From an uncultured Gemmatimonadales bacterium (GTDB lineage Bacteria; Gemmatimonadota; Gemmatimonadetes; Gemmatimonadales; GWC2-71-9), in assembly GCA_963844035.1 (NCBI GenBank), contig CAWJMT010000036.1, positions 128,001-192,000 of the forward strand: a stretch of DNA of 64,000 nucleotides, read 5' to 3'. The notes under the pieces were generated by a model. It made no database searches, was not told the origin of the DNA, and was given only the letters and a program-made list of their open reading frames with translations. The position numbers were made by a program, and so were the translations under genes. Shown piece after piece: positions 37,555 through 56,368 of this stretch (its first letter is position 1; the number at the start of each line of letters is the position of its first letter).

Positions 37555-38037
37555 CTACTTCAAGGCTTTCTGCGGCGGGGCGACTTCCACCTTGATGAGG
37601 TGCGGTTTGGCTGCCTCGACTTTGGGCAGCACTACCGTCAGCACGCCGTTGTCGAAGGTCGCTTTGATCTTGTCGGGCGCGACCGTCGCCGGCAGTGTGA
37701 AGCGGCGCTCGAATGCGCCATATGTCCGCTCATACCGATGCACCTTCTCGGCCTTCTCCTCTGCTATCTGCTCCTTGTTCCCTTTGATCGTCAGCACGTT
37801 GTTCTCGACTGTGATATGCACATTCTCGAGTTTGACGCCCGGCAGCTCCGCAACGATGCGGATGAACTCTGCCTCCTCGAAGATGTCGACCAGCGGCATC
37901 CAGGCGGTTGTTGCTATCTCTGGGGCGTTCCACTCCATCAGTCCATAGGGCTCGAAGAAGCGGCCCATACGACGCTCCAGCCGGTACAGCAGATCCAGCA
38001 TCGGATCCGTCTGCGGCTTCGTGGTGATGTTGAACAT
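37555..38037 (-). CDS. Hsp20/alpha-crystallin small heat shock protein
   Basis: PLVDIFE, AELPGV, ERTYGAFERRFTLP, NGVLTVVLPK; GGGAGG RBS. Confidence 0.93.
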   Translation of the reverse strand: MFNITTKPQTDPMLDLLYRLERRMGRFFEPYGLMEWNAPEIATTAWMPLVDIFEEAEFIRIVAELPGVKLENVHITVENNVLTIKGNKEQIAEEKAEKVHRYERTYGAFERRFTLPATVAPDKIKATFDNGVLTVVLPKVEAAKPHLIKVEVAPPQKALK

Positions 38038-38206
38038 GGTAATCCTCCCTTTGACGTTGCACCCCGAACGTAGTCGCCTCGGGGTGAAGCGTGGTGAGGT
38101 CACCCTGAGGCTTTCGAGCGGATACCTTCACGCTCAGCGGCCTTGCTCGAACTGTTCCGTCGCTGCGAGCTTCTTGTACACATCGGCTATCACTCTTGGG
38201 GGGGCT

Positions 38207-38548
38207 ATGAACGTGCGGTCAGGGAACTGGAAAGCAGGCATCGTAGCGGCGGTGTTCGGGGTCGTTCTGGGGGCCGCACCAGCGGTTGCTCAGGCGCCTG
38301 ACGGGGCGGCGCTGTACAAGCAGTACTGCAAGGCGTGTCACGGCGCGAAGGGAATTCCGTCGAAGCAGATGGTGACGATCTACCCGGGCCTGAAGGCGTT
38401 GGCCGATAGCGGCGCGCTTGCCAAGCTTCCGACGGACACGGTGATCGCCGCGATGCAAAAGGGGAGAGGCACCACCATGAAGGCGTTCGGCGACGTGCTG
38501 TCGCCCGAGCAGATGGCGGCGGTAGCGAAGTTCACCAAGACGTTGTAG
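38207..38548 (+). CDS. Monoheme class I cytochrome c
   Basis: Signal peptide, DGAALYKQYCKACHG, distal Met in MKAF. Confidence 0.9.
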   Translation: MNVRSGNWKAGIVAAVFGVVLGAAPAVAQAPDGAALYKQYCKACHGAKGIPSKQMVTIYPGLKALADSGALAKLPTDTVIAAMQKGRGTTMKAFGDVLSPEQMAAVAKFTKTL

Positions 38549-38557
38549 CAGCCGCCG

Positions 38558-40018
38558 TCACGGGCGCAGGGGCGGTGGAAACGTATCGTAGAAGTGTGGC
38601 TCGGCGTTGCTGGTCCCCCGTAGCGCGGCCATGTACTGGGCCAGCTCTTCAATTTCCTGGTGCGAGAGTACCGGCGGCCCGAACGCGGGCATGTGCGACT
38701 CCGCATAGAACCGGCTCGGCTGCTCGATGAAGCTGTGCAGCCACCCGGCTGAGTGCCGCAACCCCACCGTCGAGAGGTCCGGGCCCACCTCGCCGCCCTG
38801 ACCAGCGATGAGGTGGCAGCCCCCGCATTGCTGCGACTGGTACAACGCGCGACCCGCTCTCTCCGCCGAGCTGAGTGCGCGGCCCGTCTCGGGGGCCGTG
38901 ATCGGGCCGCGGCCCGCCGCCCCGATCAGGATGCCGGCGCCGCCGAGAATACCGACCAAGCAGATCAATGCGAATGGCCGATGCAACAGGTTTCGGGTGC
39001 TCCCCCGATCAAAGAACGGCAGTCCCAGCAGAACCAGGATCAGCGCCGCCGGAACGCCGACCGCGATGAGGCTTTCCAGCGAGCCGGGAACAAGCTTGAG
39101 GAGCTGATAGATCGGCAGGAAGTACCACTCCGGCCGCGGCACGTAGGCCGTGTCGGTGGGGTCGGCTGGAGGATCGAGCGGAGCGCCCAGCGCGAACGCG
39201 AGCAGCACGATGACAACGACGGTGCCCGCCGATACGATGGCGTCCTTCCCCAACACGTCCGGCCAGAATCGCACCCCCCCCCGCTTGGACGCAGCGTACG
39301 CCTGTCGATAGTAGGCCGGATATCCTGGATCCCCGGTCCCCTTCGGCGCCCCCACCTCCAGGTCCTTCGGGCGCGCGGCGATGCCCTGGCGTACCACGAC
39401 CACCAGATGGAGAGCGACGAAGACAGTAATCACCAGCGGCAACCACAGGGCGTGGAAGGCGTAGAAGCGCGCCAGCGTCGCCGCCCCGAGCTCCGCGCCC
39501 CCGCGGAGTAGCGCGACCAACGCGGAGCCCAGCACGGGCGTCGTCCCGGCCATGTTCGTGCCGACGGCGGTGGCCCAGTACGCCTTCTGGTCCCAGGGTA
39601 GGAGGTATCCGGTGAAACTGAATACCATCACGATCAGGAACAGCCCCATTCCCACGATCCAGTTGACCTCGCGGGGATACTTGTACGCTCCCACGGCGAA
39701 TACACGAATCATGTGTGCGACAATGAGGACCACCATCACGCTCGCTGCCCAATGGTGGATCCCGCGCAGCAGGGAACCGCTCGCGACCTGAGTTTCGATG
39801 AACCGAATGCTCTCGTAGGCGTGATCGGGCGAGGCGGAGTAGTAGGTCGCCAGGGTCACACCGGTGATGACCTGCACGAGAAAGACGGTGAGCGTCGCGC
39901 TCCCCAGCGTGTGCCACCAGGTGAGGCGGTCGGGGACTTCGCGGTCGAGCAGATCTCGCTTGGCCCGCACGAGATCCAGTCGTTCGTCGAGCCAGCGGAA
40001 TGGGTTCATCATCATCAT
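38558..40018 (-). CDS. Cytochrome b (b6 + subunit IV regions) fused to a C-terminal cytochrome c
   Basis: His pairs H-x13-H and H-x14-H, TGYLLPWDQ, PEWY, then CGGCH...GPDL...MPAF. Confidence 0.93.
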   Translation of the reverse strand: MMMMNPFRWLDERLDLVRAKRDLLDREVPDRLTWWHTLGSATLTVFLVQVITGVTLATYYSASPDHAYESIRFIETQVASGSLLRGIHHWAASVMVVLIVAHMIRVFAVGAYKYPREVNWIVGMGLFLIVMVFSFTGYLLPWDQKAYWATAVGTNMAGTTPVLGSALVALLRGGAELGAATLARFYAFHALWLPLVITVFVALHLVVVVRQGIAARPKDLEVGAPKGTGDPGYPAYYRQAYAASKRGGVRFWPDVLGKDAIVSAGTVVVIVLLAFALGAPLDPPADPTDTAYVPRPEWYFLPIYQLLKLVPGSLESLIAVGVPAALILVLLGLPFFDRGSTRNLLHRPFALICLVGILGGAGILIGAAGRGPITAPETGRALSSAERAGRALYQSQQCGGCHLIAGQGGEVGPDLSTVGLRHSAGWLHSFIEQPSRFYAESHMPAFGPPVLSHQEIEELAQYMAALRGTSNAEPHFYDTFPPPLRP

Positions 40019-40019
40019 C

Positions 40020-40550
40020 TCAGGTCGAGGCCTTGGCGGTGACGCCCAGGTGGAAGTCCTTGTAGTCGGCATAGAGCACGCCGTCTTCGACCTTCACCTG
40101 TAAGGTGTCGAGCGGCCGCGGCGGCGGGCCCCCCAGGACGGCGCCGGTCGCGATCTCGAAAAAGCCCGAGTGGCACGGGCAGCGAAACACCTTCTTTTCG
40201 GTGTCGAGCGAGTAGTTGCACCCCAAGTGGGTGCAGCGTCCGTTGTAGACCGTGAAGTGCTCACCGTCCGCCGTGTAGATCCACACGTTGCGGAGCCGGC
40301 GGGTCTCCACCCAGGCGTCGTTGGCGGTATCGACGAAGTCCAGCTTGGTCGGGACCTCGGTCTCGAACTGGCTGACGTCCCCTAAGCGAACCCATTTCTC
40401 AGGTCGCTTTTGCCCGAAGACCGGCGAGAGGAATGCACGCGCCGCCGGAACGCCGGCGAGCAACGTGCTGAGAAATCCGCCCACCGCCGTGGCCCACTTG
40501 AGGAACGTGCGCCGGCTGGCGCGGACAACGTCCGCTGGTTGCACTGCCAT
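40020..40550 (-). CDS. Rieske 2Fe-2S subunit of a Rieske/cytochrome b complex
   Basis: Tat motif SRRTFLK, CTHLGC, CPCHSG, GPPPRPL. Confidence 0.95.
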   Translation of the reverse strand: MAVQPADVVRASRRTFLKWATAVGGFLSTLLAGVPAARAFLSPVFGQKRPEKWVRLGDVSQFETEVPTKLDFVDTANDAWVETRRLRNVWIYTADGEHFTVYNGRCTHLGCNYSLDTEKKVFRCPCHSGFFEIATGAVLGGPPPRPLDTLQVKVEDGVLYADYKDFHLGVTAKAST

Positions 40551-40577
40551 GGTGCAGACCTCCTGGGAGTTCCGTTC

Positions 40578-41994
40578 CTACGGCGTCGGGATCGCGGTGC
40601 CGTGACAGACCGTGCACATCTGGGGATTCTTCTGCTTCAACCGCTCGGCGTCAAATCCCGGCCCGTGGGGGTTGAACCGGCGGCCCCCGTTGGCGGAGTG
40701 ACACGGGAGGCAGTCGCGCTCGACGTGGCAGGAGACGCAGGTCTCGAGGCTCTGCCGCGCGGCCTGGCCGTGGCCCCCAATGAAGTTGCTGTTGGCGTCA
40801 TGAAAGCCGCCCCGCAGTGTCCGCGAGCTCACCAAACCGGCCGTCGCGTGACAGGTCGTGCAGAAGCCCGCGGGATTGTGGCACTCGCTGCACGACGTCT
40901 CGCGCGCGTAGGCCGCCGCGGGGTGGCGGGCCAGGAATGCGGTCGGATGATATCCGGGCCCTGTCCCCGCATCCAGCCGGTGGCACTCGAGACAGTTGGA
41001 CTGCACGTGGCACCCGGCGCACGTGGCCGGGGTCCGGGCGGCCATCGCCCCGTGACCGCGCGCGAAATCCGGTCCGTGAAACACCGGACGGTGGCGCGCG
41101 ATGATCGCTCCGATCCCGCGCCCCGCGCCGCGGGTCGGGAGCGCCGCGGCGACGCGCGGCGTGCCCACGTGGCAGGTGAGGCAGCTCTCCCGTGCGTGGC
41201 AGCTCGAGCACTGAACCGGTGCACTGCGCGCCGTCGCGCCGTGGCGGTTGAGGAACGCCGGCTCGCGCGTGCGATGGGGGCGCTCTGAGGTGCACCACGA
41301 TTGCGGTCGAGCGTGGGTCACTCGGCAGCGCCTGGATCGCAGCGCGCTCCGGCGCGTCCACGTGGCAGGTGAGGCAGAACTCCCGCGCGTGACAGGTGGC
41401 GCAACTCGCCGCTACGGCGGCGTTCCTGCCACCGCTCTGCGCGGCCCTGGCGTGCCCGCCGCCGCCGACCCAACCCGCCTCCTGGTGCGAGGGCGGGGTG
41501 GGGAACCCGGCGATGTCTTCGCGCGTGAGCGCTTGCGCTTCCGCGAGGGGCAGGTGACAGACGGTGCATGCGGTGTCCGGCGCCGCGAGATGCGCCGTAC
41601 GCACGCCATGACAGTTGAGGCAGCGTCCAAAATTCACGCGCTGCACCGCCATCCACGTGCCGTCGTCCGAACCGTGACAGACCGTGCACCCCGGGGGCCC
41701 GGGTTGGCCTGCGCGCACCATTATCGGCACGAGGGCGTGATCGAACCGCAGATTCGTCCGTCGCGGTCCAGCCGGCGGACGCCAGTTCACCCGCGGCTTT
41801 ACCGTACCGTCATGACAGGTCGCGCACGCCGCGGGATCGGGATACAACGACCCCTCGCCGGTCGCCGGCTGCGCGTGACAGGCTGTGCAGGTGGGGAACA
41901 ACCGGCGGTGTTTCTCATGATCGAACCGCTGTGCCTGCGTCTGTTGCGCGGCCACTCCCCGCCCGGGGTGCACGCCCAAGGCGAGGGCTACCAT
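40578..41994 (-). CDS. Multiheme cytochrome c, 16 CxxCH, one frameshift near 41265; start approximate
   Basis: 7 CxxCH in the 40798..43233 ORF and 9 in the 40578..41321 ORF; signal-like N-terminus (VAA-QQ). Confidence 0.88.
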
Positions 41995-42014
41995 CAGGAC
42001 GTGCCGCAGTGCGG

Positions 42015-43529
42015 CTATGGGGAGGTCCCCGGCGAGCGCGGCATCTGCAGCACGGCGGGCGGGAGTCGGCTGAGATCCGCGCCGCTTGCCAACACAAACA
42101 CGACCCGAGCGCTCACGCGCACCTGGTCCCAGCTGAACGCCGCGGCGTCGGGGCGCTTCCGATCCTCGTCGTACCGGCTGGCATCCAGCTCGACCCGCAC
42201 TCGAGACGACGACCGATACTGGGCATACACGCCATACGTGCGGACCGACGATTCGTCGAAGCGCAGCTCCAGGGGGCGATCCAGCATGCCGCCGTGGGCG
42301 GCGACCGTGAAGAAGTCGGCCGGCGCGTACGCAACGCCCGCTTCGAAGCCGCGCGACGATGCTCCCGGGCCGAATTCGGAGTGGTAGCCGCCTTGCACCG
42401 TCCACTTCGGGGGCAGGGTGTAGACGGCGTTCCAGGAGAACCGCCACCCGTCGCTCTCGACGTTCACCGTCGGCGTCGCGGCTTCGGCGTTCGCGAACGA
42501 GTAGCGCTCGCCGCTGGCGCGGAGCGCGAGATGGCGGATCGGCGTGACAGCAAGCGAAGCGTCGAACGCCGTGTAGGGCACCGGCGCGAATGCTCCCCAG
42601 ATGGTCCACAAGTCGAAGTGCGGGCGATAGCGCCGCACCGCGGCGGAGGCGTTGACGCGGCCGTTCGGTGCCGCGTACGCGAGCGTCCCTTCCGCGCTGC
42701 CCCACCACCCTTGCGCCATGTCGTATTCGGCCCCGCCCGAGAGGGTCACGCCGCGATAGGGTCGTACGCCAGCGTCGACGCCGATTCGTTCCGCCACGAA
42801 GTAGTGGACGCTTGGGTCCACCTCGCGCTCGTAGGTGAGCCTGACGTCCCCGTGAGACGTGGTCCAGCCGGCACCGCCGCCGGCGACGACCATCCGCTCC
42901 GGCGGGCGGTACTCGTCGAGCGGGTTCAGCGCCGGGCTGGTGACGGGAAGCACCGAGCCGCGCCACAGCCCCCAACCTCCGTAGCCCGTGACATCGAGGC
43001 CGAGGCGGCGGTCGCGCAGGGTGAGCCGGCCGCCGTCGAATCCGGTGAGCCCGAACCGTGTCGCCACCGTCTGTCGGCCCAGCTGGACGGTCATGCGCTC
43101 CACCGCGTATTGCGCGTAGCTCTCGAGCAGCTGCGCCGATGGCTCTGTCCCGGGCCAGGGATCGGCGCCGCCGAACGAGCCGGCGAGCCGTGCGATCGCG
43201 TGAATCGAGAGGCCCGGTAACCCGAGACCCCACACCGTCAGGTCTGCATTACCGGTCACCGGACGTGCGTCCTGCTGCAGCCCCGGCCGGAAGAAGCTGC
43301 AATAGGGGCTCCCCGCAACGCAGTCCACGGCGAAGCCGTCCGGCGTGGTCGGCCCGCCCGACAGCCCGGTCACGGTGTCGCCGACCGGGATGCTGTCCAG
43401 CTGGACGCCGCGGTAGGCCACGGCCTGCGCGCGGGTGTCGACGCGCAACCGGTAGCCCTGCGCCAGCCCGGACCGGGGGAGGGCGATCGCGAGAATCAGC
43501 AGCGGCGCCGCGATTCGGCGGGGGATCAC
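42015..43529 (-). CDS. Putative outer-membrane beta-barrel (porin of a porin-cytochrome complex)
   Basis: Signal peptide (GLA-QG), ~500 aa heme-free, rich in alternating Y/W/F strands; sits between multiheme genes, with its start overlapping the upstream stop. Confidence 0.68.
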   Translation of the reverse strand: MIPRRIAAPLLILAIALPRSGLAQGYRLRVDTRAQAVAYRGVQLDSIPVGDTVTGLSGGPTTPDGFAVDCVAGSPYCSFFRPGLQQDARPVTGNADLTVWGLGLPGLSIHAIARLAGSFGGADPWPGTEPSAQLLESYAQYAVERMTVQLGRQTVATRFGLTGFDGGRLTLRDRRLGLDVTGYGGWGLWRGSVLPVTSPALNPLDEYRPPERMVVAGGGAGWTTSHGDVRLTYEREVDPSVHYFVAERIGVDAGVRPYRGVTLSGGAEYDMAQGWWGSAEGTLAYAAPNGRVNASAAVRRYRPHFDLWTIWGAFAPVPYTAFDASLAVTPIRHLALRASGERYSFANAEAATPTVNVESDGWRFSWNAVYTLPPKWTVQGGYHSEFGPGASSRGFEAGVAYAPADFFTVAAHGGMLDRPLELRFDESSVRTYGVYAQYRSSSRVRVELDASRYDEDRKRPDAAAFSWDQVRVSARVVFVLASGADLSRLPPAVLQMPRSPGTSP

Positions 43530-45458
43530 GAGCCGCCATCCTCCCGCAGGTGAGTCTGGAATGCTTCGGGGCTGCTCCCGAAATGGCACAGCGTGCATTC
43601 CTTGTCCCGGTAATGCTCCTGCCGCGCTGCGTGACATGTGAGGCACAAGCCCCGGTCGGGAACGAGCCGCGCGACGATCGCGGCATCGTGGCATGCGTCG
43701 CAGGCGGTGTGCGCTTCCGCAGGGGGTGCATGCGCCGCACGCACGGCTGTGGATCCGCCGTCGTTGTGACACACGGCGCACGGTTTCCCCGCCGCGTGGT
43801 GGTTGTCATGACACGCGGCGCACGTCGCGACCGCCGGCTGCGGCTCGAGGGTGGCGGGCGTGGTGTGACAGGTCACGCACTTCAGGGTGCGGTGCCGGTC
43901 GTGCTCGAAACGGGCAGGGTGGAGCCGCGGCTCGCTGCCGGCTACGGCGACGCGCACGGCAACCGAGTCAGGCCGCGTCACTTCGCTCGCGGCGTGGCAC
44001 TTCGCACAGTCGCTCGTTTGCGGCGCCTGGTGGTGGCAGATCTGGCACCCCCGGGGGGCTTCGAACGTGAGGCGGTTGCGCGCGCTCTGCGACGCGTGGC
44101 AGGTGATGCACGAGAATTTCTTGTGGAGGCCGTGCGGGAAGCTGTCGGCGGCCGCCTCACCGCCGCGCGGGTCGCCCCCCGCCGGCGGACCCCCAAAAAA
44201 AGGTCCGTGCCCAGAGTCCTCATCCGGGCTCCCCCGGGATGCAAGGCGCAGCGGGGGTGATGTGGTGAGGTGCGACACCCGCCGCAACGCCGCCGCGGTA
44301 TCGAACGGCAGCGGGGGATTCATCCCCTTCCCGCCGCGGCGTTGCTTGACTTCGGCGTGGCAGCTGGCGCAGTCGCTCGGATCGACTTTGGCGTGATGGG
44401 GCTCGTGACACAGCGTGCAGTTCTCGCCCACCCTGCGGTGGTTCGTGCCGACGTGAAAGGCGTCGGACCGCCAGTCGGCATGGCATTTGGCCGAGGTGCA
44501 GGTGCGCGCCGCTTCGGCCGGGCTCGCCTGCGTATGGGGATTGTGGCAATCACCGCAGGTGCCCCGGTGCGGGTCGCGCGCCGGGTCGAACTCGGCGAGC
44601 ACAGCCTGCATCTCGTGACACGAAAGGCACTGCTTCATGCTGGGGACGAGCGTACCGCGCGCAGAGTCGCGCGTCGCAAGCAGGGGGACTTCCGCCGTGA
44701 AGCGATGGCACACGACACAGTGCAGATCCGTCTGATCTCGCATCTTGGCCAGCGTTGATCTCCATGCGCGCATGGCATCCGGACTGGGCGCATGTCGCGT
44801 TCACCGGAACGAAGCGATGGACCTCCATGCCGTGACACGTGACGCACTGCACGTTCTTGAGCGCGCTGGAATCGGACTCGAGGTGGGTGCGGTGACCGGC
44901 CGTGGAGGCGATGCGCTGCCACTTCTCCTTCGCGTTGCCCTGGACGTGGCAGCTGCTGCACACGCTCGTCGCCACCTTGGCGTGCGTGCCGATCTCGGTC
45001 GGCCGGTCGGCGACCCATAGATAGAGCTGCCGCATGCTGGCGAACATCGATTGCTGATGGCAGTTGTGGCACTCGAGCGAGTCGTGTTTGGAGCCGGCGA
45101 ACCGCTGAAACGGCGCGTTCATCACGTGGCAGCCGGTGCAGAAGCCGTTGTTGTGATTCACGTAGTGCATGCTTACAGCGCCGCCGCCGGCAGCCGCGAG
45201 CACCACGACGCCCGCGCCTGCGGCGAGCCCGAGTTTGGTGCTGCGTGGCAGCGAGACGAGCCACAGGTAGATGGCGACGCGGGAGCGCCACAGCAGCGCC
45301 AGGACCGCCAGCGCGACCAGCACCCCGACGATGAATCCCGCGATTTGGAACCACTGAGGAAGATTGAAGAAGAACCGCAGCACGGCGGCGACGCCGCCGG
45401 GCAGCGGCGGCTGCCCGACGGCCACCTGCTGGGGTGTCACGCCTGACCCCTCTCCCAT
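43526..45458 (-). CDS. Membrane-anchored multiheme cytochrome c (18 CxxCH + 2 Cx4CH) with NapC/NrfH-like N-terminus; one frameshift near 44750
   Basis: Two N-terminal TM helices, then FCTGCHVM (CxxCHxM); motifs counted across two ORFs. Confidence 0.88.
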
Positions 45459-45485
45459 GGGAGGGGGCGCTCGAGCGACGGCAAA

Positions 45486-47081
45486 CTATCGGACGCTCAC
45501 CTTGAGCCCCGGCGGCGGCGTCGCACGGATTCGCAAGTCAAAGTTCGCCGGCGGCGTGAGGCCGTACGTCGTATGGATCGCCGCGATCGACGAGGTGAGC
45601 AGCGCCTCGAGCAGGAATGGATTGTGCACTCCGTTTCCCGACGCCGCGTGGGCGGTGAAGCCGTTGCCCAGCACCCGGCCGTTCAGGAAGTACGCGCGGT
45701 CGTCCGTCGCCGCGAGCGCGGCGTTGTACAGTGTGCCCTTGGCGACCGTCGTGGTCGTGCTGCGGAAGTTGATCGGGGCCGAATCCGCGGCCGTTGCTCC
45801 CGGCCGCATGGCCCGCGCGACGAGCTGCGGCACCAAGCCGCCGTCGGTTGAATCGATGATGGCGTTGGCGTTCAAGTCGGTCCAGATCTGATCGAGCTGG
45901 TTGTTCAGCGTGCCGATTTCGGACGTGTATGCCGACATCGCGGTCTGCGTGGACGAGTGGCATCCGGAACTGACGCAGCCGGAGAAATCGCGTTGCGCGG
46001 TTGCGCAGGTCCCGGGCACCGGTATGCCGTTCGCATCCTTGCAGGGGATCGCGTCGAACAGGTGACCGACGCTCTGGAACTGGAAGGCACCGGTGGCCGC
46101 GTCGGTGATCGTCGTCCGGACCACGTGGCAGGTCGCGCACAGCCGCTGGTTCTGGCCGGTGCCGTGGCTGCTCACGATGTTGTTCGTGTCGTAGGTGAAG
46201 CCCGGCGGAATCCAGCCCGCGTTCTGTCCGATCACCAGGAAGCCCTGCGCGCCGTGCGGTCCGCGCGCCGAGGAGGTCGCGCTCGCGGCGCTCCAGGGCG
46301 GGGTCGCGCTACGAGCATGGCACTTGATGCAGAGATTGTCGGTCGTCGGCGTGGAAACCGATGCCCGCAGCTGGTGCTCGTACGGCGACCCGTGCGGGTC
46401 GTGGCACACGGAGCACACGATGCGCTGATGGGTCGTGTCGCTCTTCTCGAGCGTAGTTGGCCTCGGTGTCCCCAAACCGTATCGCGATCGCGGCCTTCCC
46501 TTCGTGGCAGGGCGCGCAGGACGCGTTCGCGGCCGGCAGACGCGAATCCGGGGCCGGACCCGTGGGCGGACTGGACCCACTGATCCACGAACGGCTCGTG
46601 CGTTCCCGTGTGGCAGCCGCCGCATCCGTTCGCCAGCGCGGTATCGACGTGGATCGATGCCAGCGGCTGGTTCGTGGTGATGTCGGGGTTCTCCGCGTGA
46701 GTGAGCCCCGGCCCGTGGCAGCTCTCGCACTGCACATCGTGGTAGGCTGAATCGGGCACCACCGTGTAGCCGGCGGGCTTGCCGACGCGTGTTGCCCAGC
46801 TGCGAGACGGTGTGGCAGGCGTTGCAGGATGAATTCGCATGGCCGGAGGCCTGCAGGTCCATCCAGGCACTAGCGTGCTTCGTCGCGCCCCACGACGCCT
46901 GCACGCCGGAGTGGCAGTTGCCGCACGTCGTCTGCTTGGTGCTCACCGTGAAATAGCCGAGAAAGCCGGCCGCCGCGTCAGGCGGCGGATTGAACGGCGG
47001 CCTTTCGACGTAGGTGATCGTCTCCTCGGTACACGCGCCAAGCGCCAGCACCGCGAGGATCACTGCGGGACGCAGCCTCAT
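45486..47081 (-). CDS. Multiheme cytochrome c lipoprotein (8 CxxCH + 1 Cx4CH), internal frameshifts
   Basis: Lipobox LGAC; CGNCH, CNACH, CESCH, CGGCH, CAPCH, CSVCH, CIKCH, CATCH, CVSSGCH; C-terminal GVHNP. Confidence 0.87.
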   Translation of the reverse strand: MRLRPAVILAVLALGACTEETITYVERPPFNPPPDAAAGFLGYFTVSTKQTTCGNCHSGVQASWGATKHASAWMDLQASGHANSSCNACHTVSQLGNTRRQARRLHGGARFSLPRCAVRELPRAGAHSRGEPRHHHEPAAGIDPRRYRAGERMRRLPHGNARAVRGSVGPVRPRVRPRIRVCRPRTRPARPATKGRPRSRYGLGTPRPTTLEKSDTTHQRIVCSVCHDPHGSPYEHQLRASVSTPTTDNLCIKCHARSATPPWSAASATSSARGPHGAQGFLVIGQNAGWIPPGFTYDTNNIVSSHGTGQNQRLCATCHVVRTTITDAATGAFQFQSVGHLFDAIPCKDANGIPVPGTCATAQRDFSGCVSSGCHSSTQTAMSAYTSEIGTLNNQLDQIWTDLNANAIIDSTDGGLVPQLVARAMRPGATAADSAPINFRSTTTTVAKGTLYNAALAATDDRAYFLNGRVLGNGFTAHAASGNGVHNPFLLEALLTSSIAAIHTTYGLTPPANFDLRIRATPPPGLKVSVR

Positions 47082-47143
47082 GGATGTTGCTTCCTTTCTA
47101 CTCTATGGGCGTGCTGACGGCACTCGGGCGTTGGGAGCGGGCC

Positions 47144-47810
47144 CTAGTCCCCGCTCTTTCGAGCCGGTCGCGTTGCAGCACCAGTGCTCTTGAGGTACAT
47201 CAGAACGTCCTGCCCCTCTGTTGGCGTGAGCGGCTTGACCTTCATCCGCTCCATGTTCCGCTCCATGCGAGCGAAGACGGTCGGCCAATCTTCCTTCGAA
47301 TGCTGACGCATGTCGGGCAACGCGTGGCAGCGGCTGCAGACCTGTGCGTACGTCTCGCGCCCTTTCCCCGCCGGAAGTACTGAGCCGCTGATCTTGAGGG
47401 CGTTGCCGGTGAGGTACTTCAGGATTTCGTACCGCTCCGCCGCGCTCGTTACCTTCACCCCTAACGACTCGGGAAGTTCATCCATGCGGATCCACATGCG
47501 TCGCGTCACGCCTGGCCAATCGGTCGCGCTGTGGGCCGTCGGGGCCGGCAACGCGTGGCACTGCGCGCAATACGTCGCGAGGACCTGTGCTCCCCGGGAG
47601 TTCGGGCTCCGGGAGGTCGCCCGGCTGAACGCCGGCCGGCGGCAGTGCGATGCTGGCGGCTGCCAAGAGCAGTTGATCGCTGTGACTGAGGGGCGGCGCG
47701 ACGGTCTGCGTCGCCTGCTCAGTGGTCGGGGCCCGCGGGGCCTGCTGGCATGCCGCCACGATGACTACCGTGAGACCCATCAACAGTGCTCCGGCCGGAA
47801 TCCGTCGCAT
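47144..47810 (-). CDS. Diheme cytochrome c lipoprotein, one frameshift near 47600
   Basis: Lipobox VAAC; two repeats, CAQCHALP.P..HS..DWP and CSRCHALP....HS..DWP. Confidence 0.82.
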
Positions 47811-47999
47811 GAACTCCTCCGCTTCTTGGTTGGGTACCGGCGTGGGGAACGATCCCGTCCGGCGCGTGAAGGCTTTGGAAGGTCGGGTGAGGGTTCGGCA
47901 CGTGTCAACTCGCACCACTCGGTGCCTCTTGTGACGCCCTAGAATGCGACGAATCGGCGACCTTCGCCAGGGTCTCGGACCACGCCACGCGCGTGCGCA

Positions 48000-48626
48000 T
48001 CAGCGGCGCCGTAACAGGTGTTTCAACCGCAGCCGCTCCTCCCGCTCCCGCTCGTCGAGGACGCGCCGTACCCCCACCATGTCCGACCGCAGCTGGGGCG
48101 CGACGCGGCGTTCGAGGGTGTTGACCTGGCGTGATGTCTGCGACAGGGCTTCGCCCAGGCGGCGAATCAGCATTTCCCGCGGCGCCGCATCGAGCAGCAG
48201 CTCGATCAGACGCTCGAACTCAGTCGCCGCGCGTACGGCAGCCGGCCCGGTGGAGCCGGGGGCCGTGCCGCGCGCGCCGAGGGTGCGGGCGAGGGCCGGC
48301 CGGCGCACGATGGTCGAGACCGCGATTCCCCACACCGACCCCGGCTCCATCTCGAGCGGGATGTCGCGGGCCGGCCAGCCGAGCGGCCGCAACCCCGCCA
48401 GCCCATGACTCGCCAGCGCGCCCAGCAGGGCGGGATACGCCCGCTGTGTGGCCTGCTCGATCCCCGCGCGGGCGTCGGCGGCGGGACGGGCGAGCCGGAA
48501 CAGCTCGCTGACCAGCGCTTCGCGCTTGCGGCGCAGGAGATCGACTCCCTTCCCGACCTGCGCGAGGCGGCGCGCCGCCCGGATGAGGTTCATCCGGGTC
48601 GGAGCCATCCGGCCGGCGACGCTCAT
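48000..48626 (-). CDS. ntpD: V/A-type ATP synthase subunit D
   Basis: PTRMNL, G..LLRRKREAL, T.RQVNTLE, EREREE. Confidence 0.92.
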   Translation of the reverse strand: MSVAGRMAPTRMNLIRAARRLAQVGKGVDLLRRKREALVSELFRLARPAADARAGIEQATQRAYPALLGALASHGLAGLRPLGWPARDIPLEMEPGSVWGIAVSTIVRRPALARTLGARGTAPGSTGPAAVRAATEFERLIELLLDAAPREMLIRRLGEALSQTSRQVNTLERRVAPQLRSDMVGVRRVLDEREREERLRLKHLLRRR

Positions 48627-50002
48627 GTCGCATTCTCCCGGCGCGCAGCCCAGGTCGCGTCGGAGAGCGGATCAGGTCTTCGCGCGGCAGGGTCTCCAAC
48701 AGGCGCCAGCCGATGTCGATGGTTTCCTGGATGCGGCGGCGGGCAGTGCCCTGTCGCCACGAACTCGGTTTCGAACCGGTCCGCGAACGCGAGCGCGCGG
48801 CGGTCGCCGGGTGACAGGCCGGCCTCCCCCACGATCGCCGCCATCGTGCGTGCGTCGCGTCCCTGGGTGTAGGCCGCGTACAGCTGATCGGCCCACTCGC
48901 GATGCTCCGGAAGGGTCTTTCCTTTTCCAATGCCGGCGTTCATGAGCCGGGAGAGCGACGGCAGCACGTCGAGCGGCGGGAACACCCCGCGGCGGTGCAG
49001 CTCGCGCGACAGCACGAGCTGTCCTTCGGTGATGTAGCCCGTGAGGTCCGGAATGGGATGGGTGATGTCGTCGTCGGGCATCGTGATGATCGGGATCTGC
49101 GTGACCGACCCAGGCCGGCCGGCCACGATCCCGGCGCGCTCGTAGATGCTCGCGAGGTCGGTGTACATGTAGCCCGGGTAGCCGCGGCGGCCGGGGATTT
49201 CTTCGCGCGCCGTGGCGATTTCGCGCAGCGCCTCGCAGTAGTGGGTCATGTCGGCGATCACGACGAGCACGTGCATCCCCGCATCGAAGGCGAGGAACTC
49301 GGCCTGGGCGAGCGCGACGCGCGGCGCGAGCAGCCGCTCGATCGTGGGATCGCGGGTCTCGTTCAGGTACAGCACGCTGCGCTCGCGCGCGCCGCTGCGC
49401 TCGAACCGCTCGAGGAAGGCGTCGGTCTCGCGCGCCGTGATGCCGATCCCGACGAAGATCACCGCGAACGGCTCGTCGTGCGGCGCGCGCGCCCCCTCCA
49501 CGATCTGCGCCGCCAGGTCGAGTCCCGGAAGCCCGGGACCGGAGAATACCGGAAGCTTCTGACCCCGCACCAGCGTGTTCATCCCGTCAATCGCTGAGAG
49601 ACCGGTCTCGATGAAGTCGGACGGACGTGCCCGGCGCGCGGGGTTGAGCGGCGCGGCCCAGATGGGACGGAGCGCCTCGCCCACGGGCGCCGGCAACCCG
49701 TCGGCGGGCGCGCCCATCCCGTTGAACACCCGGCCGAGGAGCTCGCGACCGACGACGACCGAACCCACATCGCCCGTGAGTGTGACCTCGACCCCCGCCG
49801 GTGCGAGGCCAACCGTGTCCTCGAGCACCTGAATCACGGAGATGTCGCGGCCGGCGTCGATCACTTGGCCGCGCCGGGCGGGCTGGCCGGGTGCCTGGAT
49901 CGACACCCATTCGCCCAACGCAACGGTCGGCGTGCGCCGGACGTACAGCAGCGGTCCGGTCGCGCGTTCCGCGCCGTGGTAGCGCCGGGCGATGGAGATC
50001 AT
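48623..50002 (-). CDS. ntpB: V/A-type ATP synthase subunit B (compensating frameshifts near the C-terminus)
   Basis: RGQKLPVFSG, REEIPGRRGYPGYMYTDL, DDITHPIPDLTGYITEGQ. Confidence 0.95.
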   Translation of the reverse strand: MISIARRYHGAERATGPLLYVRRTPTVALGEWVSIQAPGQPARRGQVIDAGRDISVIQVLEDTVGLAPAGVEVTLTGDVGSVVVGRELLGRVFNGMGAPADGLPAPVGEALRPIWAAPLNPARRARPSDFIETGLSAIDGMNTLVRGQKLPVFSGPGLPGLDLAAQIVEGARAPHDEPFAVIFVGIGITARETDAFLERFERSGARERSVLYLNETRDPTIERLLAPRVALAQAEFLAFDAGMHVLVVIADMTHYCEALREIATAREEIPGRRGYPGYMYTDLASIYERAGIVAGRPGSVTQIPIITMPDDDITHPIPDLTGYITEGQLVLSRELHRRGVFPPLDVLPSLSRLMNAGIGKGKTLPEHREWADQLYAAYTQGRDARTMAAIVGEAGLSPGDRRALAFADRFETEFVATGHCPPPHPGNHRHRLAPVGDPAARRPDPLSDATWAARRENAT

Positions 50003-51729
50003 GCCAGTGCCGCCACGGCCGCCGTCGCGGCCGCAATGCACGCCGGCAGCTCGGCCGGCCCGGCGCGCCGGACGCCAGCGAGCGCGCGACGCGCGGGTCC
50101 AAGATCAATGCGCTCGATCGGTGTTCCCGCGTCGAGCGCCCGGAGCCCTGCTCTGATAGAGCCCGTGCGCCAGGGCTGCGAGCTGGTAGGTCTTGTCGAG
50201 CGGGGAATGAGCGTCGTTGGGGTCGTAGGCGCTCTGGCCCAGCACCGTCTCGCGGACGACGCGCGCGGCGTCGAGCAGCAGCCGGTCGCGATCCTGGAGC
50301 GCCTCCGGTCCCACCAGGCCGGCGATTTCGCGCAGCTCCCGTTCCCGTTGCATCAGCTCGAGCGTCCCCCGCCGGATCTCCGGCCAATCGGCGCCCGCCG
50401 CGCTGGCGAACCACGGGGCCAGCGCGTCGGCGTGCAGGCTGTAGCTCGTCTCCCAGTCCACGGCGGGAAACTGGCGTTGATGCGCGAGCGCGGGATCGAG
50501 CGCCCAGAGGGCGCCCGCGACGCGCAGCGACGCCTGCGTGACGGGCTCGGAGAAATCGCCCCCGGGCGGTGAGATCGCGCTGATGAGGGTTACGGCGCCG
50601 GTACGCGCCGGTTGTCCCAGCGCTTCCACCCGACCGGCGCGCTCATAGAACTTTCCCAGTCGGTTGCCGAGATACGTGGGATAGCCCTCCTCGCCCGGCA
50701 TCTCCTGGAGCCGGGCACCGATCTCGCGCAGCGCCTCCGCCCAGCGTGACAGGCTGTCCGCCAGCACCGCCACCCGGTAGCCCATGTCGCGGTAGTACTC
50801 GGCGATCGTGATCCCCAGGTACACCGACGCCTCGCGCGCCGCCACGGGCATGTTGGACGTGTTCGCGATCAGCACCGTACGGTCCATGATCGACCGGCCC
50901 GTGCGAGGATCGAGGAGCTTGGGAAACTCCTCGAGCACTTCGGCCATCTCGTTGCCGCGCTCGCCGCACCCGATGTAGACCACCACGTCCGCGGCCCCGT
51001 ACTTGGCGAGCGATTGCTCGATGACCGTCTTGCCGGTCCCGAACCCGCCCGGCACGGCAACGCTGCCGCCCTCGGCCACCGGGAACAGAAAGTCGAACAC
51101 GCGTTGACCGGTGATGAACGGCTCGCGCGAGGGCAGCCGCCGCGCGGACGGGCGCGGCTGGCGCACCGGCCAGTGGTGCCCGAGTGCGAGCGTCGTCCCG
51201 CTTTCGAGCCGGCCCACCTCGTCGGCGACGCTGAATTCGCCCGCGTGAAGCTCGGCGACGGTGCCCTCGACACCCGGGGGCACGAGGATGCGGTGCAGCA
51301 ACCCCGGTCGTTCCTCAACGGTGCCCAGCACGTCGCCGCCCGCGACGTGAGCGCCGGGCTGCACCAGGGGAGCGAATGTCCACCGTCGTGCCGCGTCGAG
51401 CGTGGCCGCTGCGACCCCCGGCTGAATGAAGTCGCCGCCGGTCTCCGCGACACGGCCGAGAGGCCGTCCCACGCCGTCCAGCACGCTGCCGAGCAATCCG
51501 GGACCGAGATGCACGGTCAGGGGCCGGCCACTCGCCGCGACCGGCTCGCCCACCTGGAGGCCGGTCGTGTCTTCGTAGACCTGCACGGTGGCGAGGTCGC
51601 CCGCCACGCGCACCACCTCGCCGAGCAGCCCGCGTGACCCGACGCGCACCAGCTCGTACAGGGCTGCGTTGCGGAGCGGCGCGACCTCGGCGAGCGAGCC
51701 GCTGATCCGGACGATGCGGGGTCGCTCAC
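49999..51729 (-). CDS. ntpA: V/A-type ATP synthase subunit A (frameshifts near both ends)
   Basis: PGGFGTGKT, GCGERGNEM, NTSNMPVAAREAS, SPPGGDFSEPVT. Confidence 0.95.
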
Positions 51730-52056
51730 CTGAGCCTCACGCGGTAGCCGATCACCTGGCGCAGCAGCTCGACGATGTAGGCTTCGGCGGCGGCGGGGCG
51801 CTCGACCCAGGCGGGACCGGGGAAGGGGATGAGCAGCGGCAGCGACCGGCGTCCCACCTGGCGGCGCAGGTCCTCCGGGAGCGCGTCGTAGAAGAGGTCT
51901 TCCACGAGCGCGACCCCGACGTCGGGTTGTGCCAGGAGCTCCTGCACCGCCGCGATGCCCGGCTGCGGGCGCCGCTGCTTCGATGGGCTGGAGGCCCGCG
52001 AGCGCGAAGCCCGCGGCGACTTCCGGCCGGCACACGACACGGAGCGCGTAGTCCAT
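51726..52056 (-). CDS. V/A-type ATP synthase subunit F, one frameshift
   Basis: GFALAG N-terminal motif; C-terminal LLRQVIGY; operon position. Confidence 0.85.
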
Positions 52057-53070
52057 CAGACGGTCACCAGGTCCCGTCCGCAGGATCGCCCGCGGCGTGC
52101 GGAGCGCGACCCCCCAGATGATGCGCTGCACATCCAGCATTTCGGCGCGCAGCCGGAGCGCGTAGGTGAGCAGCGGGGCGGGCCCGAGCGGGTCGATCCG
52201 TCCGGTGCGAACGAGTGCGCGGATGCGGGCCCGCAGCAGGGCGGTCTCGAGCCCGGCGGAATCGCCGCTCGCCCGGGCGAACACCGGTCCGAAGGGCGTG
52301 TTCACGAGCGCCGCGGCAATGCGACGGCCCGCTCCCGTGGTCGAGCCTGCCGCACACGCTGCTTCGAACGCCGATTGCGACAAGGTGGCGTCCACCTTGA
52401 AGGAAGGCTTCCCCGGGGCTGATGTCTCTCCCCTCGCTCGCGAGCACCAGCGCCGTGTACCGCGTTCTCGAGATCGATCGCGTCGCGAACGTAGTCAGCC
52501 AGGAGGCCGGTGCCGCGTGCGGCGCGGCTCGCGCGGGCCGCGAACGTGCGGTTGACGAGCAACTCCAGGGTGAACAGGTCGGGCTGCGCGGCCGAGGCAG
52601 CGGCGAGCAGCACCGACCCGTACGGGTTGCGCCATGCGGTGAGCAGCGCCGCGACGGCCGCCGGTGTGGCCTGGTTCGCGAGCTCGCGCAGGGCACGCTC
52701 CGGCAGTGTGGGCGTCGGTACGAGGCCGGCCAACCGAGCCTCGGCGGGGGCGTGCTGCAGGCTGCCGCGCAGCAGCGCGCGCAGGCTGCGCCGGTCCTCA
52801 TCTTCGAACAGCACGGCCAGGATTGCGACGCGCGGGCCGCACCAGCGGGCGAGCAGTCGGAGCCGGTCCGCGGCCGCGCGGCGGAGCGCGAGCTCCAGCG
52901 CGGCGGGCGAGGCGGTGCCTTCTTCCAAGGGGTAGCCGTAGATGCCGCAGCGCCTCCCCGAGCGCCGCGGCGTCCGGGACCTGCGCCAGCATCGCCAGCT
53001 GCGGGCCACTCAGGAGGTGGGTGGCGAGACCACGCGCGCGGGCGTTCAGGTCTTCCCAGCGCACGGTCAT
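52056..53070 (-). CDS. V/A-type ATP synthase subunit C (d), several frameshifts
   Basis: LNARARGL...LL N-terminus, IDLEN, DPLGPAPLL.Y; operon position. Confidence 0.8.
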
Positions 53071-53652
53071 GGTGTCGTGCCCAGTCGTCCGAGGACCTCG
53101 AGCGCGAGGTGCGGACGCAGCCGATCGAGCCGCGCCTCGAGCGTGTTGTCGGCCTCGACGGCGCCGTCGCTGGTGGCGACGATCACGCCGGCGCCGCCCC
53201 CGCCTCGCCCCGCACCGATACGTTCTGACGCGTCTGCGACCGCGGCCTGCACAGCGGGGACGAGGAGCACCGGGCAACGGATCAGGGCAGGCTCATCGCC
53301 GATGGCGCGCAGCCCCTGGTCCACGTGGTGGGGGAGCGCCGCGCGGTATGCATCGCTCGCGAGCGCCTCGGGGAGCCGGGCGCGCGCGGCGGCGAATACG
53401 CGCTCGAGCAGCCGCTCTCGGGCTTCGAGCACCGTCGCTGCGGCTCACCCGCCGTGCGTCGCCGAGCGCGGCCGCAGCGGCTCCCCGCAACTCCGTTTCG
53501 CGGGGTCCGAGTGCGTCACTCCGGCGCCGCGCCAGGCGCGCGTCGGTGTCGCGGGCGATTTCGGCGGCTTCGGCGCGCGCTGTGGCGAGCAGCGCCTCGG
53601 CCTGCGCCGTCGCTTCGCGCTCCAGTGCGGTGAGCAGATGCTCGAGGGGCAT
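53067..53652 (-). CDS. V/A-type ATP synthase subunit E, one frameshift
   Basis: Coiled-coil N-terminus, GVIVATSDG...DNTLEARL. Confidence 0.85.
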
Positions 53653-53663
53653 GGCTAGGGAGG

Positions 53664-53752
53664 CGCGAGTGAACTCGCGGCTCGGCACCTGCCCGTAAAC
53701 GGGCACGGCATGGCCGCTTCAGCGGCAGGGCCGAGCCGCGGCTTCAGCCGCG
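53664..53752. repeat. Cluster of four short hairpins (REP/BIME-like) between ATPase subunits K and E
   Basis: CGCGAG-TGAA-CTCGCG, TGCCCG-TAAA-CGGGCA, GCCGC-TTCA-GCGGC, CGCGGC-TTCA-GCCGCG; outer pair GCTCGGC/GCCGAGC. Confidence 0.7.
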
Positions 53753-53770
53753 ACATTCGGGTCGACCAGT

Positions 53771-53992
53771 TCACGCCGTCTTCCCGAGCAGGATGAGCAC
53801 GGCGACCACGAACCCGAGAATGACCATCGTCTCAGGGATCGCAATCATCAGGATCGCCGTGGTGGAAAGCTCGGGCTTCTCGGCCATGCTCGCCGCGATG
53901 GCCGGTCCGATGCGGGACTGCGCCCACGCGGTTGCGAGCGCGGGGATCGCCACGGCGAGGGCCGCAGCCAGTACGGTAAACAGGACGTTCAT
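53771..53992 (-). CDS. ntpK: V/A-type ATP synthase subunit K (c-ring proteolipid, single hairpin, 73 aa)
   Basis: ATAWAQSRIG...AEKPE...IPETMVILG; own RBS (AGGAG) upstream. Confidence 0.92.
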   Translation of the reverse strand: MNVLFTVLAAALAVAIPALATAWAQSRIGPAIAASMAEKPELSTTAILMIAIPETMVILGFVVAVLILLGKTA

Positions 53993-54018
53993 ATAGACGC
54001 TCCTATCGAGGGCCGGTG

Positions 54019-55909: not shown

Positions 55910-56274
55910 GCCCCAACTCCGATCGCGCGCTCCACGACGTAGCGTGCCAGGGCGTCGATCTGTTCGGGGCCGGTCTGGTCAAAACGCAACGCGTCGCGCC
56001 GCGCCGCCTCCATGACCTCCTGCTCCTGTCGTTGCCGCTCGGCCTCGATCGTTGCCTCGAGTTCGCGACAGATCGCGTCGATACTGGCTACCAGGGCGGC
56101 CTCGCGTGCCGCCGCAGCCTCCTGCGCGGTGGTGATCAGTCCCGCTGCTTGCGCCCGCGCGCGGCACAGCATCTCCTCGAGCCGGGCCTCGGCATCGAGC
56201 AGTCGCGACAAGTCCGCAGCCCCCTCAGAGGGAGCGGACGGGCTCGACTGCTTGCTCTGCGAACGACGGATCAC
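55906..56274 (-). CDS. Probable V/A-type ATP synthase subunit G/H (peripheral stalk)
   Basis: Short Ala/Glu-rich coiled coil; first gene of the operon, overlapping the subunit I start. Confidence 0.7.
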   Translation of the reverse strand: MIRRSQSKQSSPSAPSEGAADLSRLLDAEARLEEMLCRARAQAAGLITTAQEAAAAREAALVASIDAICRELEATIEAERQRQEQEVMEAARRDALRFDQTGPEQIDALARYVVERAIGVGA

Positions 56275-56368
56275 CAGAATGTGCTCCGGTGCGGTGTGTG
56301 ACTACAGTCTCGCTGGAAGCGAGTCGGGCAAGAGTGAAGAAGACAGAAAGATTCCTTCATGCGGGTAC

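Follow-up and report, generated by a model that had tools for sequence, protein, structure and literature searches.

The 64,000-nucleotide stretch of DNA analysed here (the window; contig CAWJMT010000036.1, assembly GCA_963844035.1, an uncultured Gemmatimonadales bacterium) carries on its minus strand a gene for a c-type cytochrome with 20 heme motifs. This gene belongs to a family in which a membrane-anchored head related to NrfH and a long heme tail form a single protein, and in which the order 9-heme lipoprotein, 20-heme cytochrome, predicted outer-membrane barrel and 16-heme cytochrome is conserved. We propose, at not quite an even chance, that menaquinol is oxidised at heme 1 of the 20-heme protein and that the electrons then run outward along its heme chain, reaching the barrel complex and the lipoprotein cytochrome. 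The proposal draws on the retained Met at heme 1, the polar residue at the position of NrfH Asp89, the place of the protein as the only anchored member of the four-gene core, and the 35 of 58 loci with neither a cytochrome b nor an NrfD gene nearby. The importance of the finding lies in the 20-heme family and not in the frame-broken copy of the window.

One gene with 20 heme motifs

Twenty heme motifs (18 CxxCH and 2 CxxxxCH) lie on the minus strand between 45458 and 43526, 11 before and nine after a Pro/Gly-rich linker. The initial annotation had counted about 20 hemes, and its layout of two helices, an FCTGCHVM site, the linker and nine further motifs was recovered, with FCTGCHVM (heme 1) at 45143-45120, after the second helix. 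In the six frames of the 3.47 Mb genome, 261 CxxCH-type motifs fall into only 8 clusters, so the 20-motif array is not a product of chance. The likely start is GTG 45440 (about 637 residues), preferred over ATG 45458, six codons upstream, because homologs align from residue 7 of the ATG-started open reading frame (ORF).

In the assembly, the motifs are split over two frames, with five in an ORF of 302 residues (45458-44550) and 15 in an ORF of 415 residues in a different frame (44773-43526). The frame is shifted by one extra base at 44753-44754, inside the gene. The base at 44753 is absent from near-identical contigs in all four covering runs (X1, X2, X4 and X5, from two studies), and the longest of these matches, of 449 nucleotides, shows one mismatch and this single gap. 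In a second contig comparison, the base was missing in two of four runs, and the remaining two had no contig bridging 44753. As the near-identical contigs also differ at 44715, they may represent a sister strain. Homolog DNA is in frame across the break site, the matched halves contain no in-frame stops, and the second half has neither a signal peptide nor a hydrophobic stretch (maximum 0.95). A programmed frameshift was considered and ruled out: the break has neither a run nor a slippery site, the reading frame is intact in homologs, and the base is absent from the contigs. Judging from these sequence comparisons, the extra base is most likely an assembly error and the 20-heme gene one gene.

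Homologs agree with this view. A search returned 781 longer homologs, of which the 120 listed were examined; all 120 hold both halves in one protein, with 20 motifs in 117, 19 in two and 18 in one. The two separate genes that the initial annotation had named as its refutation were not seen among these 120, and its single ORF holds for homologs and contigs but is divided in the assembly by one base. Similarly, a single 20-heme ORF was found in 20/20 loci drawn from 20 of the 28 matching relative genomes. In a further, partly overlapping set of 80 loci, 71 of the 72 genes uncut by a contig end form a single ORF of 19-21 hemes. In the exception (L114, 2210-8915), the gene is split at the linker with its halves on opposite strands, by inversion or misassembly.

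Five further frame breaks occur in the operon: the 9-heme gene has three, and the 16-heme and diheme genes have one each. Two positions within the 9-heme gene, 46450 and 46536, each lack a single base in a contig of run X5. Outside the operon, the RuBisCO gene and one gene for a heme-copper oxidase likewise match in two pieces. Separately, V-type ATPase genes at about 48000-56300 of the window are also in pieces. Owing to the breaks across the cluster (window 38558-47918), gene calls from the assembly will undercount hemes. A promoter and terminator scan returned 2 promoter-like sites (0.7 expected) and 5 terminator-like ones (3.8 expected), none of them usable.

A membrane head related to NrfH

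The 19-residue Kyte-Doolittle peaks of the two helices are 2.79 and 1.82, and both segments are helical in the AlphaFold model of the homolog P0003. The loop between them is strongly basic, which predicts an outside N-terminus and periplasmic hemes; from this we infer an N-out topology with all hemes in the periplasm. As in the NapC family, an uncleaved helix directly precedes heme 1, with the predicted basic loop on its N-terminal side. The first helix is lineage-specific, and homologs of family f3 start just before the second helix, like NrfH.

When only the head was compared with Protein Data Bank (PDB) sequences, NrfH (2J7A) was the sole match (E 1.2e-4). A head profile reaches NrfH at E 4.4e-8 over the helix and hemes 1-3, with the next match at E 0.029. 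Moreover, the amphipathic helix after heme 2 is retained. The 11-heme module (helix 2 and hemes 1-11; module 1) of homolog L037 was folded with a deeper alignment and gave a predicted local distance difference test (pLDDT) score of 88.7 and a predicted template modelling score of 0.75. The top match of this model among 48,161 chains is NrfH 2j7a_C (Z 5.0, root-mean-square deviation 5.0, 123 aligned, NrfH 14-149), which ties with MtrA (201 residues, Z 4.8, root-mean-square deviation 6.4). The full-length P0003 model (pLDDT 63) had no Foldseek match, and VIA-align gave helix matches only. Two stand-alone 11-heme relatives pass the Pfam PF03264 cut-off, at 26.9 and 27.9 bits. NapC-family proteins carry four or five hemes, against 20 motifs here, and the neighbours are a 9-heme gene and a barrel gene, not the adjacent nrfA of NrfH proper. 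Collectively, a relationship of the head to NrfH is supported by sequence and weakly by the predicted fold.

The heme-1 ligand of NrfH is Met49, and its quinol-binding residue is Asp89; CymA lacks both and nevertheless oxidises quinol (PMC3279761). A quinol-site Lys is common to NrfH, CymA, NapC and ImoA (bioRxiv 10.1101/2022.01.10.475773). The equivalent positions were mapped by sequence, and rows gapped at a position are omitted from its counts. The heme-1 Met (CxxCHxM) is present in 120/120 close homologs, 61/82 Gemmatimonadota-like sequences and 44/50 distant relatives, and is missing in 8/21 rows of another homolog alignment. The Asp89 position is Gln in 120/120 close homologs (Gln144 here) and Gln or Glu in 64/89 Gemmatimonadota-like sequences. 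Furthermore, module 1 has 11 invariant non-motif His for its 11 hemes (His96 and the motif-2 His uncounted) and two invariant Met. The head may well oxidise quinol, as the initial annotation had suggested; the heme-1 Met is kept, but the site is remodelled, with no Lys82 equivalent and Gln in place of Asp89.

A subgroup without this Met (L027, L028, L033-L036, L039 and L040) has Phe or Arg instead and an insertion of about 11-13 residues after heme 1. Five Met-less representatives form one clade (FastTree support 0.995, midpoint root) in a tree of 103 rows with at least 135 of 170 columns, and 6 of the 8 genomes of the subgroup have no cytochrome b match. The subgroup is a natural test case for the quinol site.

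The c7-like tail and its reach

The tail scores 49.1 bits against the Pfam c7 family (cut-off 24.8) and has 10 conserved non-motif His for its 9 hemes. Its best PDB sequence match is 3ov0_A (E 1.3e-12), an entry labelled 'cytochrome c family protein', which we take to be the dodecaheme nanowire GSU1996 of Geobacter. Other multiheme proteins score nearly equally (E 9e-12), so this match is partly motif-driven. The linker measures 82 residues in the window, and 59-101 residues separate hemes 11 and 12 across 137 homologs. Heme-to-heme transfer requires edges within about 14 Å; the two heme modules must therefore touch, and the linker adds no conducting length.

A wire-like shape is suggested by the alignment of module 1 with MtrA and by the resemblance of the tail to GSU1996. 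MtrA is 80-104 Å long (PMC3279761), and a reference title in PMC11492766 gives 12 nm for GSU1996. By analogy, module 1 would be about MtrA-sized and the tail about three quarters of GSU1996. The heme-bearing parts would then sum to about 17-19 nm, against about 23.5 nm for the Shewanella periplasm, a width which is beyond bridging by CymA and MtrA (PMC3279761, 2012) and possibly differs from that of the host. It is doubtful that the 20-heme protein spans the periplasm to the barrel alone, as the initial annotation had thought possible, and the 16-heme protein is probably needed to finish the electron path.

The conserved gene cluster

The features of the cluster are collected in Table 1. The 20-heme stop overlaps the GTG start of the barrel gene as GTGA, in agreement with the translational coupling to a porin noted initially, and across loci the barrel start overlaps or closely follows this stop, mostly with overlapping codons. 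The barrel gene lies 3' of the 20-heme gene in 20/20 loci and in every untruncated locus of the 80-locus set, and the four-gene order is kept wherever contigs reach. Only the 20-heme protein has an uncleaved membrane anchor within this core. As in porin-cytochrome conduits in general, a predicted barrel gene adjoins a cytochrome of at least 10 hemes and further cytochromes.

Table 1. Features of the 20-heme gene and its neighbours (window positions)
Feature	Position	Strand	Evidence or remark
20-heme cytochrome gene	43526..45440	-	Heme motifs, two ORF halves, homolog alignment; interrupted by one extra base
First hydrophobic helix, predicted out-to-in	45288..45353	-	Hydropathy peak 2.79
Basic loop, predicted cytoplasmic	45231..45287	-	Mean 6.4 Lys+Arg, 139 homologs
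Second helix, equivalent of the NrfH membrane anchor	45165..45230	-	Aligns with NrfH residues 14-35; helix in model
NrfH-like four-heme core	44817..45140	-	Met113, His125, Gln144, His159, His189, His192, His214; Lys82 segment missing
Extra base	44753..44754	-	Left out in contigs of runs X1, X2, X4, X5
Hemes 5-11, end of 11-heme module	44357..44792	-	Model pLDDT 88.7; stand-alone 11-/12-heme relatives
Heme-free Pro/Gly-rich linker, predicted disordered	44153..44356	-	pLDDT <50, residues 382-460 of P0003
Hemes 12-20, three cytochrome c7-like triheme units	43529..44152	-	Pfam Cytochrome_C7 E 5e-13; PDB 3ov0_A E 1.3e-12
Predicted outer-membrane beta-barrel, ~22 amphipathic strands	42015..43529	-	Rough scan, 22 alternating segments; Pfam OMP_b-brl E 6e-4, below cut-off
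9-heme lipoprotein, upstream	45486..47081	-	Lipobox LGAC; three frame breaks in assembly
16-heme cytochrome, downstream	40578..42018	-	Signal peptide; one frame break; start not fixed
Rieske protein, exported by twin-arginine translocation (Tat); accessory, lineage-specific	40020..40550	-	Pfam Rieske E 1.9e-10, Tat signal
Cytochrome b with PEWY, fused to monoheme cytochrome c; accessory	38558..40018	-	Only PF00033 match of the genome
Diheme lipoprotein ahead of the cluster in some lineages	47144..47918	-	One frame break

The nearest named Atlas clusters of the barrel are barrels; a sequence search at E 1 gave it no PDB match, and none of its Pfam scores exceeds the cut-off. An intact homolog of the 9-heme lipoprotein matches OcwA (6i5b_A, E 2.9e-5), and the 16-heme protein has no PDB sequence match at E 0.01. 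In addition, the window holds a convergent monoheme cytochrome c gene (38021-38548, +) and a membrane protein that presumably resembles a MenA/UbiA prenyltransferase (56012-57259, +).

Distribution and wider family

Gemmatimonadota are common in soils and sediments, and the named homologs belong almost entirely to this phylum, in keeping with a Gemmatimonadales origin of the window. The head profile matches 99 of 301 genomes sampled across it, with one copy each. At E 1e-10, the same profile finds 241 cluster representatives, the best 150 of which include proteins with 10, 12, 16, 17, 24, 27, 30 and 34 motifs and some fragments. Among 59 uncut ORFs at metagenome loci of relatives, 33 have 12 hemes and 17 have 11. 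The 20-heme form thus looks like a stand-alone membrane cytochrome of 11-12 hemes with an added c7 tail. One relative is labelled Nitrospinota, and Atlas clusters point to Myxococcota and Nitrospirota. No barrel of the 20-heme-cluster family was found near 78 metagenome loci of distant relatives, which is weak evidence because most contigs are short, and a 12-heme relative had no plasmid match.

The same head with 30-34 hemes occurs in P0177, P0180, P0189, P0194, P0196, P0206, P0212, P0224, P0227, P0240 and L125. Two cluster copies (L060 and L070) lie in a record labelled Vicinamibacterales, by misbinning or transfer.

Candidate quinol oxidases beside the cluster

Downstream context was read from 58 non-redundant loci with at least 3 kb downstream, whose related genomes are not independent samples. 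Cytochrome b is nearby in 17 loci and an NrfD gene in 6, the remaining 35 having neither in the fetched flank, and the genes sampled downstream of the cluster are mostly unrelated. The cytochrome b gene lies downstream on the same strand, convergently in family f3, or directly upstream (L092, L095, L098, L103 and L115). Moreover, stand-alone 12-heme relatives adjoin Rieske/cytochrome b genes in L128 and L167. Among 29 genomes with the 20-heme gene, 11 have neither cytochrome b nor an ImcH-like match, and eight of these are at least 95% complete; such carriers indicate that the core cluster does not depend on the bc pair. NrfD-family genes occur in 12/12 genomes tested. Of the two quinol-oxidising routes of the initial annotation, the second, by the Rieske/cytochrome b pair, exists in the source genome, but with cytochrome b near the cluster in only 17 of 58 loci it is lineage-specific.

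An NrfD neighbour was also considered as a dedicated quinol oxidase and dropped, since the one case scanned, in L035, is part of a convergent molybdopterin-oxidoreductase operon. This operon (L035, 13759-19960, -; also beside the cluster in L039, L108, L113 and L116) encodes 5- and 4-heme cytochromes, an Fe-S protein and NrfD. In L092 (4110-7771), a multiheme cytochrome with a C-terminal helix precedes the upstream cytochrome b gene.

The source genome (G000) encodes menaquinone synthesis by the futalosine pathway, cytochrome c assembly and heme-copper oxidases, and its RuBisCO large-subunit match lies in two pieces at C37:223539-224463. An ImcH-like gene (L121:3914-5589, contig C5), frame-broken near its end, has three N-terminal hydrophobic stretches and a CGRTCH first heme. 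It scores above the PF03264 cut-off, and ImcH-like matches occur in 9/61 genomes. A pentaheme cytochrome (L124:5626-6258, contig C37) lies near an NrfD-family gene, and this locus is likely an alternative complex III. A second large cluster, which lies outside the window (L122, C36:12000-28000), holds a 20-heme ORF, a 16-heme ORF and a repeat cytochrome whose two frames together carry 43 motifs (15.7-19.2 kb); we take it to resemble PCC3-type repeats.

Electron path and alternatives

In the proposed mechanism, the NrfH-like head would oxidise menaquinol at heme 1, a site outside any Q cycle. The heme chain would then lead the electrons through much of the periplasm, in the direction of the predicted barrel and the cytochromes of 16 and 9 hemes. 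The 9-heme c7 tail may dock both to module 1 and to either the barrel or the 16-heme protein, and flow would run outward to an extracellular acceptor. One chain would thus act as both CymA and periplasmic shuttle, and the Rieske/cytochrome b pair of the source genome would likely be an added second entry point. A further reading, possible though doubtful, is that the quinone pool is hard-wired to the pore through a Lys-free quinol site of a new type and a hinged arm of 11 and 9 hemes, with no diffusible shuttle. The family, as yet undescribed, would have changed the size of its tail across phyla (10 to 34 hemes) and would make about a third of Gemmatimonadota genomes capable of extracellular electron transfer.

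Several observations weigh against quinol oxidation at heme 1 and an outward wire. The structural Z of 5.0 is within the range that the tool calls common and is tied with MtrA, and Foldseek on the L037 module model returned nothing at E 0.001. The Pfam Cytochrom_NNT check set by the initial annotation failed at 18.8 bits against a gathering cut-off of 24.1 (PF03264), and P0003 scores 28.7 against 134.2 bits for the NrfH equivalog TIGR03153; the NapC/NrfH/CymA-like head named there thus stands as a best match to NrfH but misses the Pfam and NCBIfam cut-offs. In distant relatives, the Asp89 position is Gln in just 19/50 and often hydrophobic. The quinol-site Lys (NrfH Lys82, CymA Lys91) falls in an 8-residue gap of the NrfH alignments, and in the wide alignment Lys stays below 60% in every column. 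Since the invariant His suffice to six-coordinate all module-1 hemes, heme 1 could be blocked. The heme-free linker cannot conduct if extended. Finally, each of the 11 carriers without cytochrome b has an NrfD-family gene; the chain could thus receive its electrons from another quinol oxidase.

Part of this evidence suits a membrane-tethered relay, in which the NrfH-descended head has lost its quinol chemistry, all hemes are six-coordinate, and the protein takes electrons from another quinol oxidase (Rieske/cytochrome b, alternative complex III or ImcH) and hands them to the barrel complex. The missing Lys82 equivalent, the sufficient His count for all 11 module-1 hemes, the three arrangements of cytochrome b beside the cluster, the 12-heme relatives of L128 and L167 and the universal NrfD-family genes of the 12 genomes are all consistent with it. 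However, most relatives across phyla keep the heme-1 Met, which has its known role at the quinol-site heme, and the amphipathic helix that follows heme 2 is retained. In addition, 41/58 loci have no cytochrome b nearby, and the NrfD neighbour scanned in L035 belongs to a separate convergent molybdoenzyme operon. We regard such a relay as rather unlikely.

Inward flow appears improbable. Here, electrons of Fe(II), humics or partner cells would enter through the barrel, and the head would reduce menaquinone, in line with a proposal for ImoA/CymA of iron oxidisers. The NapC family has members among Fe(III) reducers as well as Fe(II) oxidisers (PMC6295460), and the source genome has the RuBisCO match and heme-copper oxidases. 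The c7-type hemes and the OcwA-like lipoprotein, in contrast, come from metal reducers, and the same genome has an ImcH-like gene, ImcH being so far tied only to quinol oxidation (PMC6295460). A periplasmic capacitor is very improbable: the 45-47 hemes of the cluster would mainly store electrons during oxygen-free spells in soil or sediment, with export secondary. Periplasmic nanowires of the GSU1996 type have been proposed as electron stores (PMC10138318), and the tail length of relatives varies widely (10 to 34 hemes), but storage needs neither pore nor lipoprotein, and the barrel gene follows, mostly with overlapping codons, in 20/20 loci and all untruncated further loci. That the 20-heme gene is truly broken or two genes in the source strain, within a decaying cluster, is hardly credible: six frame breaks lie within the cluster and the contigs without the extra base differ at 44715, perhaps as another strain, but breaks also hit unrelated genes of the assembly, the matched halves lack in-frame stops, and neither a signal peptide nor a hydrophobic stretch is seen in the second ORF.

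Comparison with known systems

Every building block of the 20-heme protein and its cluster is of a known type, namely NrfH/CymA, c7 nanowires, porin-cytochrome conduits and ImcH/ImdcA-like extended membrane cytochromes. The fusion and the four-gene cluster are what appears undescribed: no published description of either was found in a search that was thin on subscription journals and ran outside the supplements of PMC13264449 and PMC6295460. Apart from one MtrCAB case reported in Gemmatimonadetes (PMC8805035), a different system, no such conduit is described for Gemmatimonadota in the accessible literature searched; porin-cytochrome clusters are listed by genome in Fig. 6 and Table S2 of PMC13264449. 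Inner-membrane cytochromes with more than 10 hemes are rare, with three among 4716 Desulfuromonadia cytochromes (PMC11492766).

Similar to NrfH of Desulfovibrio vulgaris (2J7A/2VR0) and to NapC/NirT/CymA/ImoA, the 20-heme protein has a membrane helix directly before a CxxCHxM heme, and it shares with NrfH the amphipathic helix after heme 2 and, as far as the predicted fold suggests, the four-heme core. It differs from NrfH in its 16 additional hemes, the extra N-terminal helix of most Gemmatimonadales, the lack of an nrfA gene alongside, the missing Lys82, Gln in place of Asp89, and scores under the Pfam and NCBIfam cut-offs. ImcH of Geobacter is likewise an inner-membrane protein with a NapC-like part and extra hemes, proposed as a quinol oxidase for extracellular electron transfer. 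However, ImcH combines 3 helices with 6-10 hemes, the first of which, a CX3CH heme, adjoins the membrane, and it was not found beside mtrAB-type genes (PMC6295460), whereas the 20-heme protein has 1-2 helices, a CxxCH first heme, 20 hemes and an adjoining barrel gene. ImdcA of Thermincola ferriacetica has an uncleaved anchor and 10 hemes, one possibly high-spin, with proposed oxidation of the quinone pool (PMC7911101), and its partner OcwA resembles the 9-heme lipoprotein of the cluster. By its description in PMC7911101, ImdcA is set apart by its ten hemes, Gram-positive host and lack of a barrel. The tail shares with GSU1996 the tandem c7 triheme units, but has three units instead of four, is fused to a membrane protein and lacks conserved Met ligands.

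The cluster resembles MtrCAB with CymA, PCC3 and PCC4 in that a barrel gene is flanked by multiheme and lipoprotein cytochromes (PMC3279761, PMC5566968), and module 1 aligns weakly with MtrA of MtrCAB. The five-helix protein of PCC3/PCC4, with two HX13H motifs, was found neither between the four contiguous genes nor in the sampled downstream genes, a scan that did not take in the upstream flanks. These conduits are linked to the inner membrane by a separate CymA or by a b-type protein with five helices, whereas here the link is a c-type fusion within the operon. If the hard-wired reading holds, about a third of Gemmatimonadota genomes would be capable of extracellular electron transfer. The Shewanella model has a stated gap at the step from CymA to MtrA, where electrons cross the periplasm (PMC3279761, 2012); a quinol dehydrogenase fused to a wire would solve this crossing in another way and be a compact part for engineering electroactive cells.

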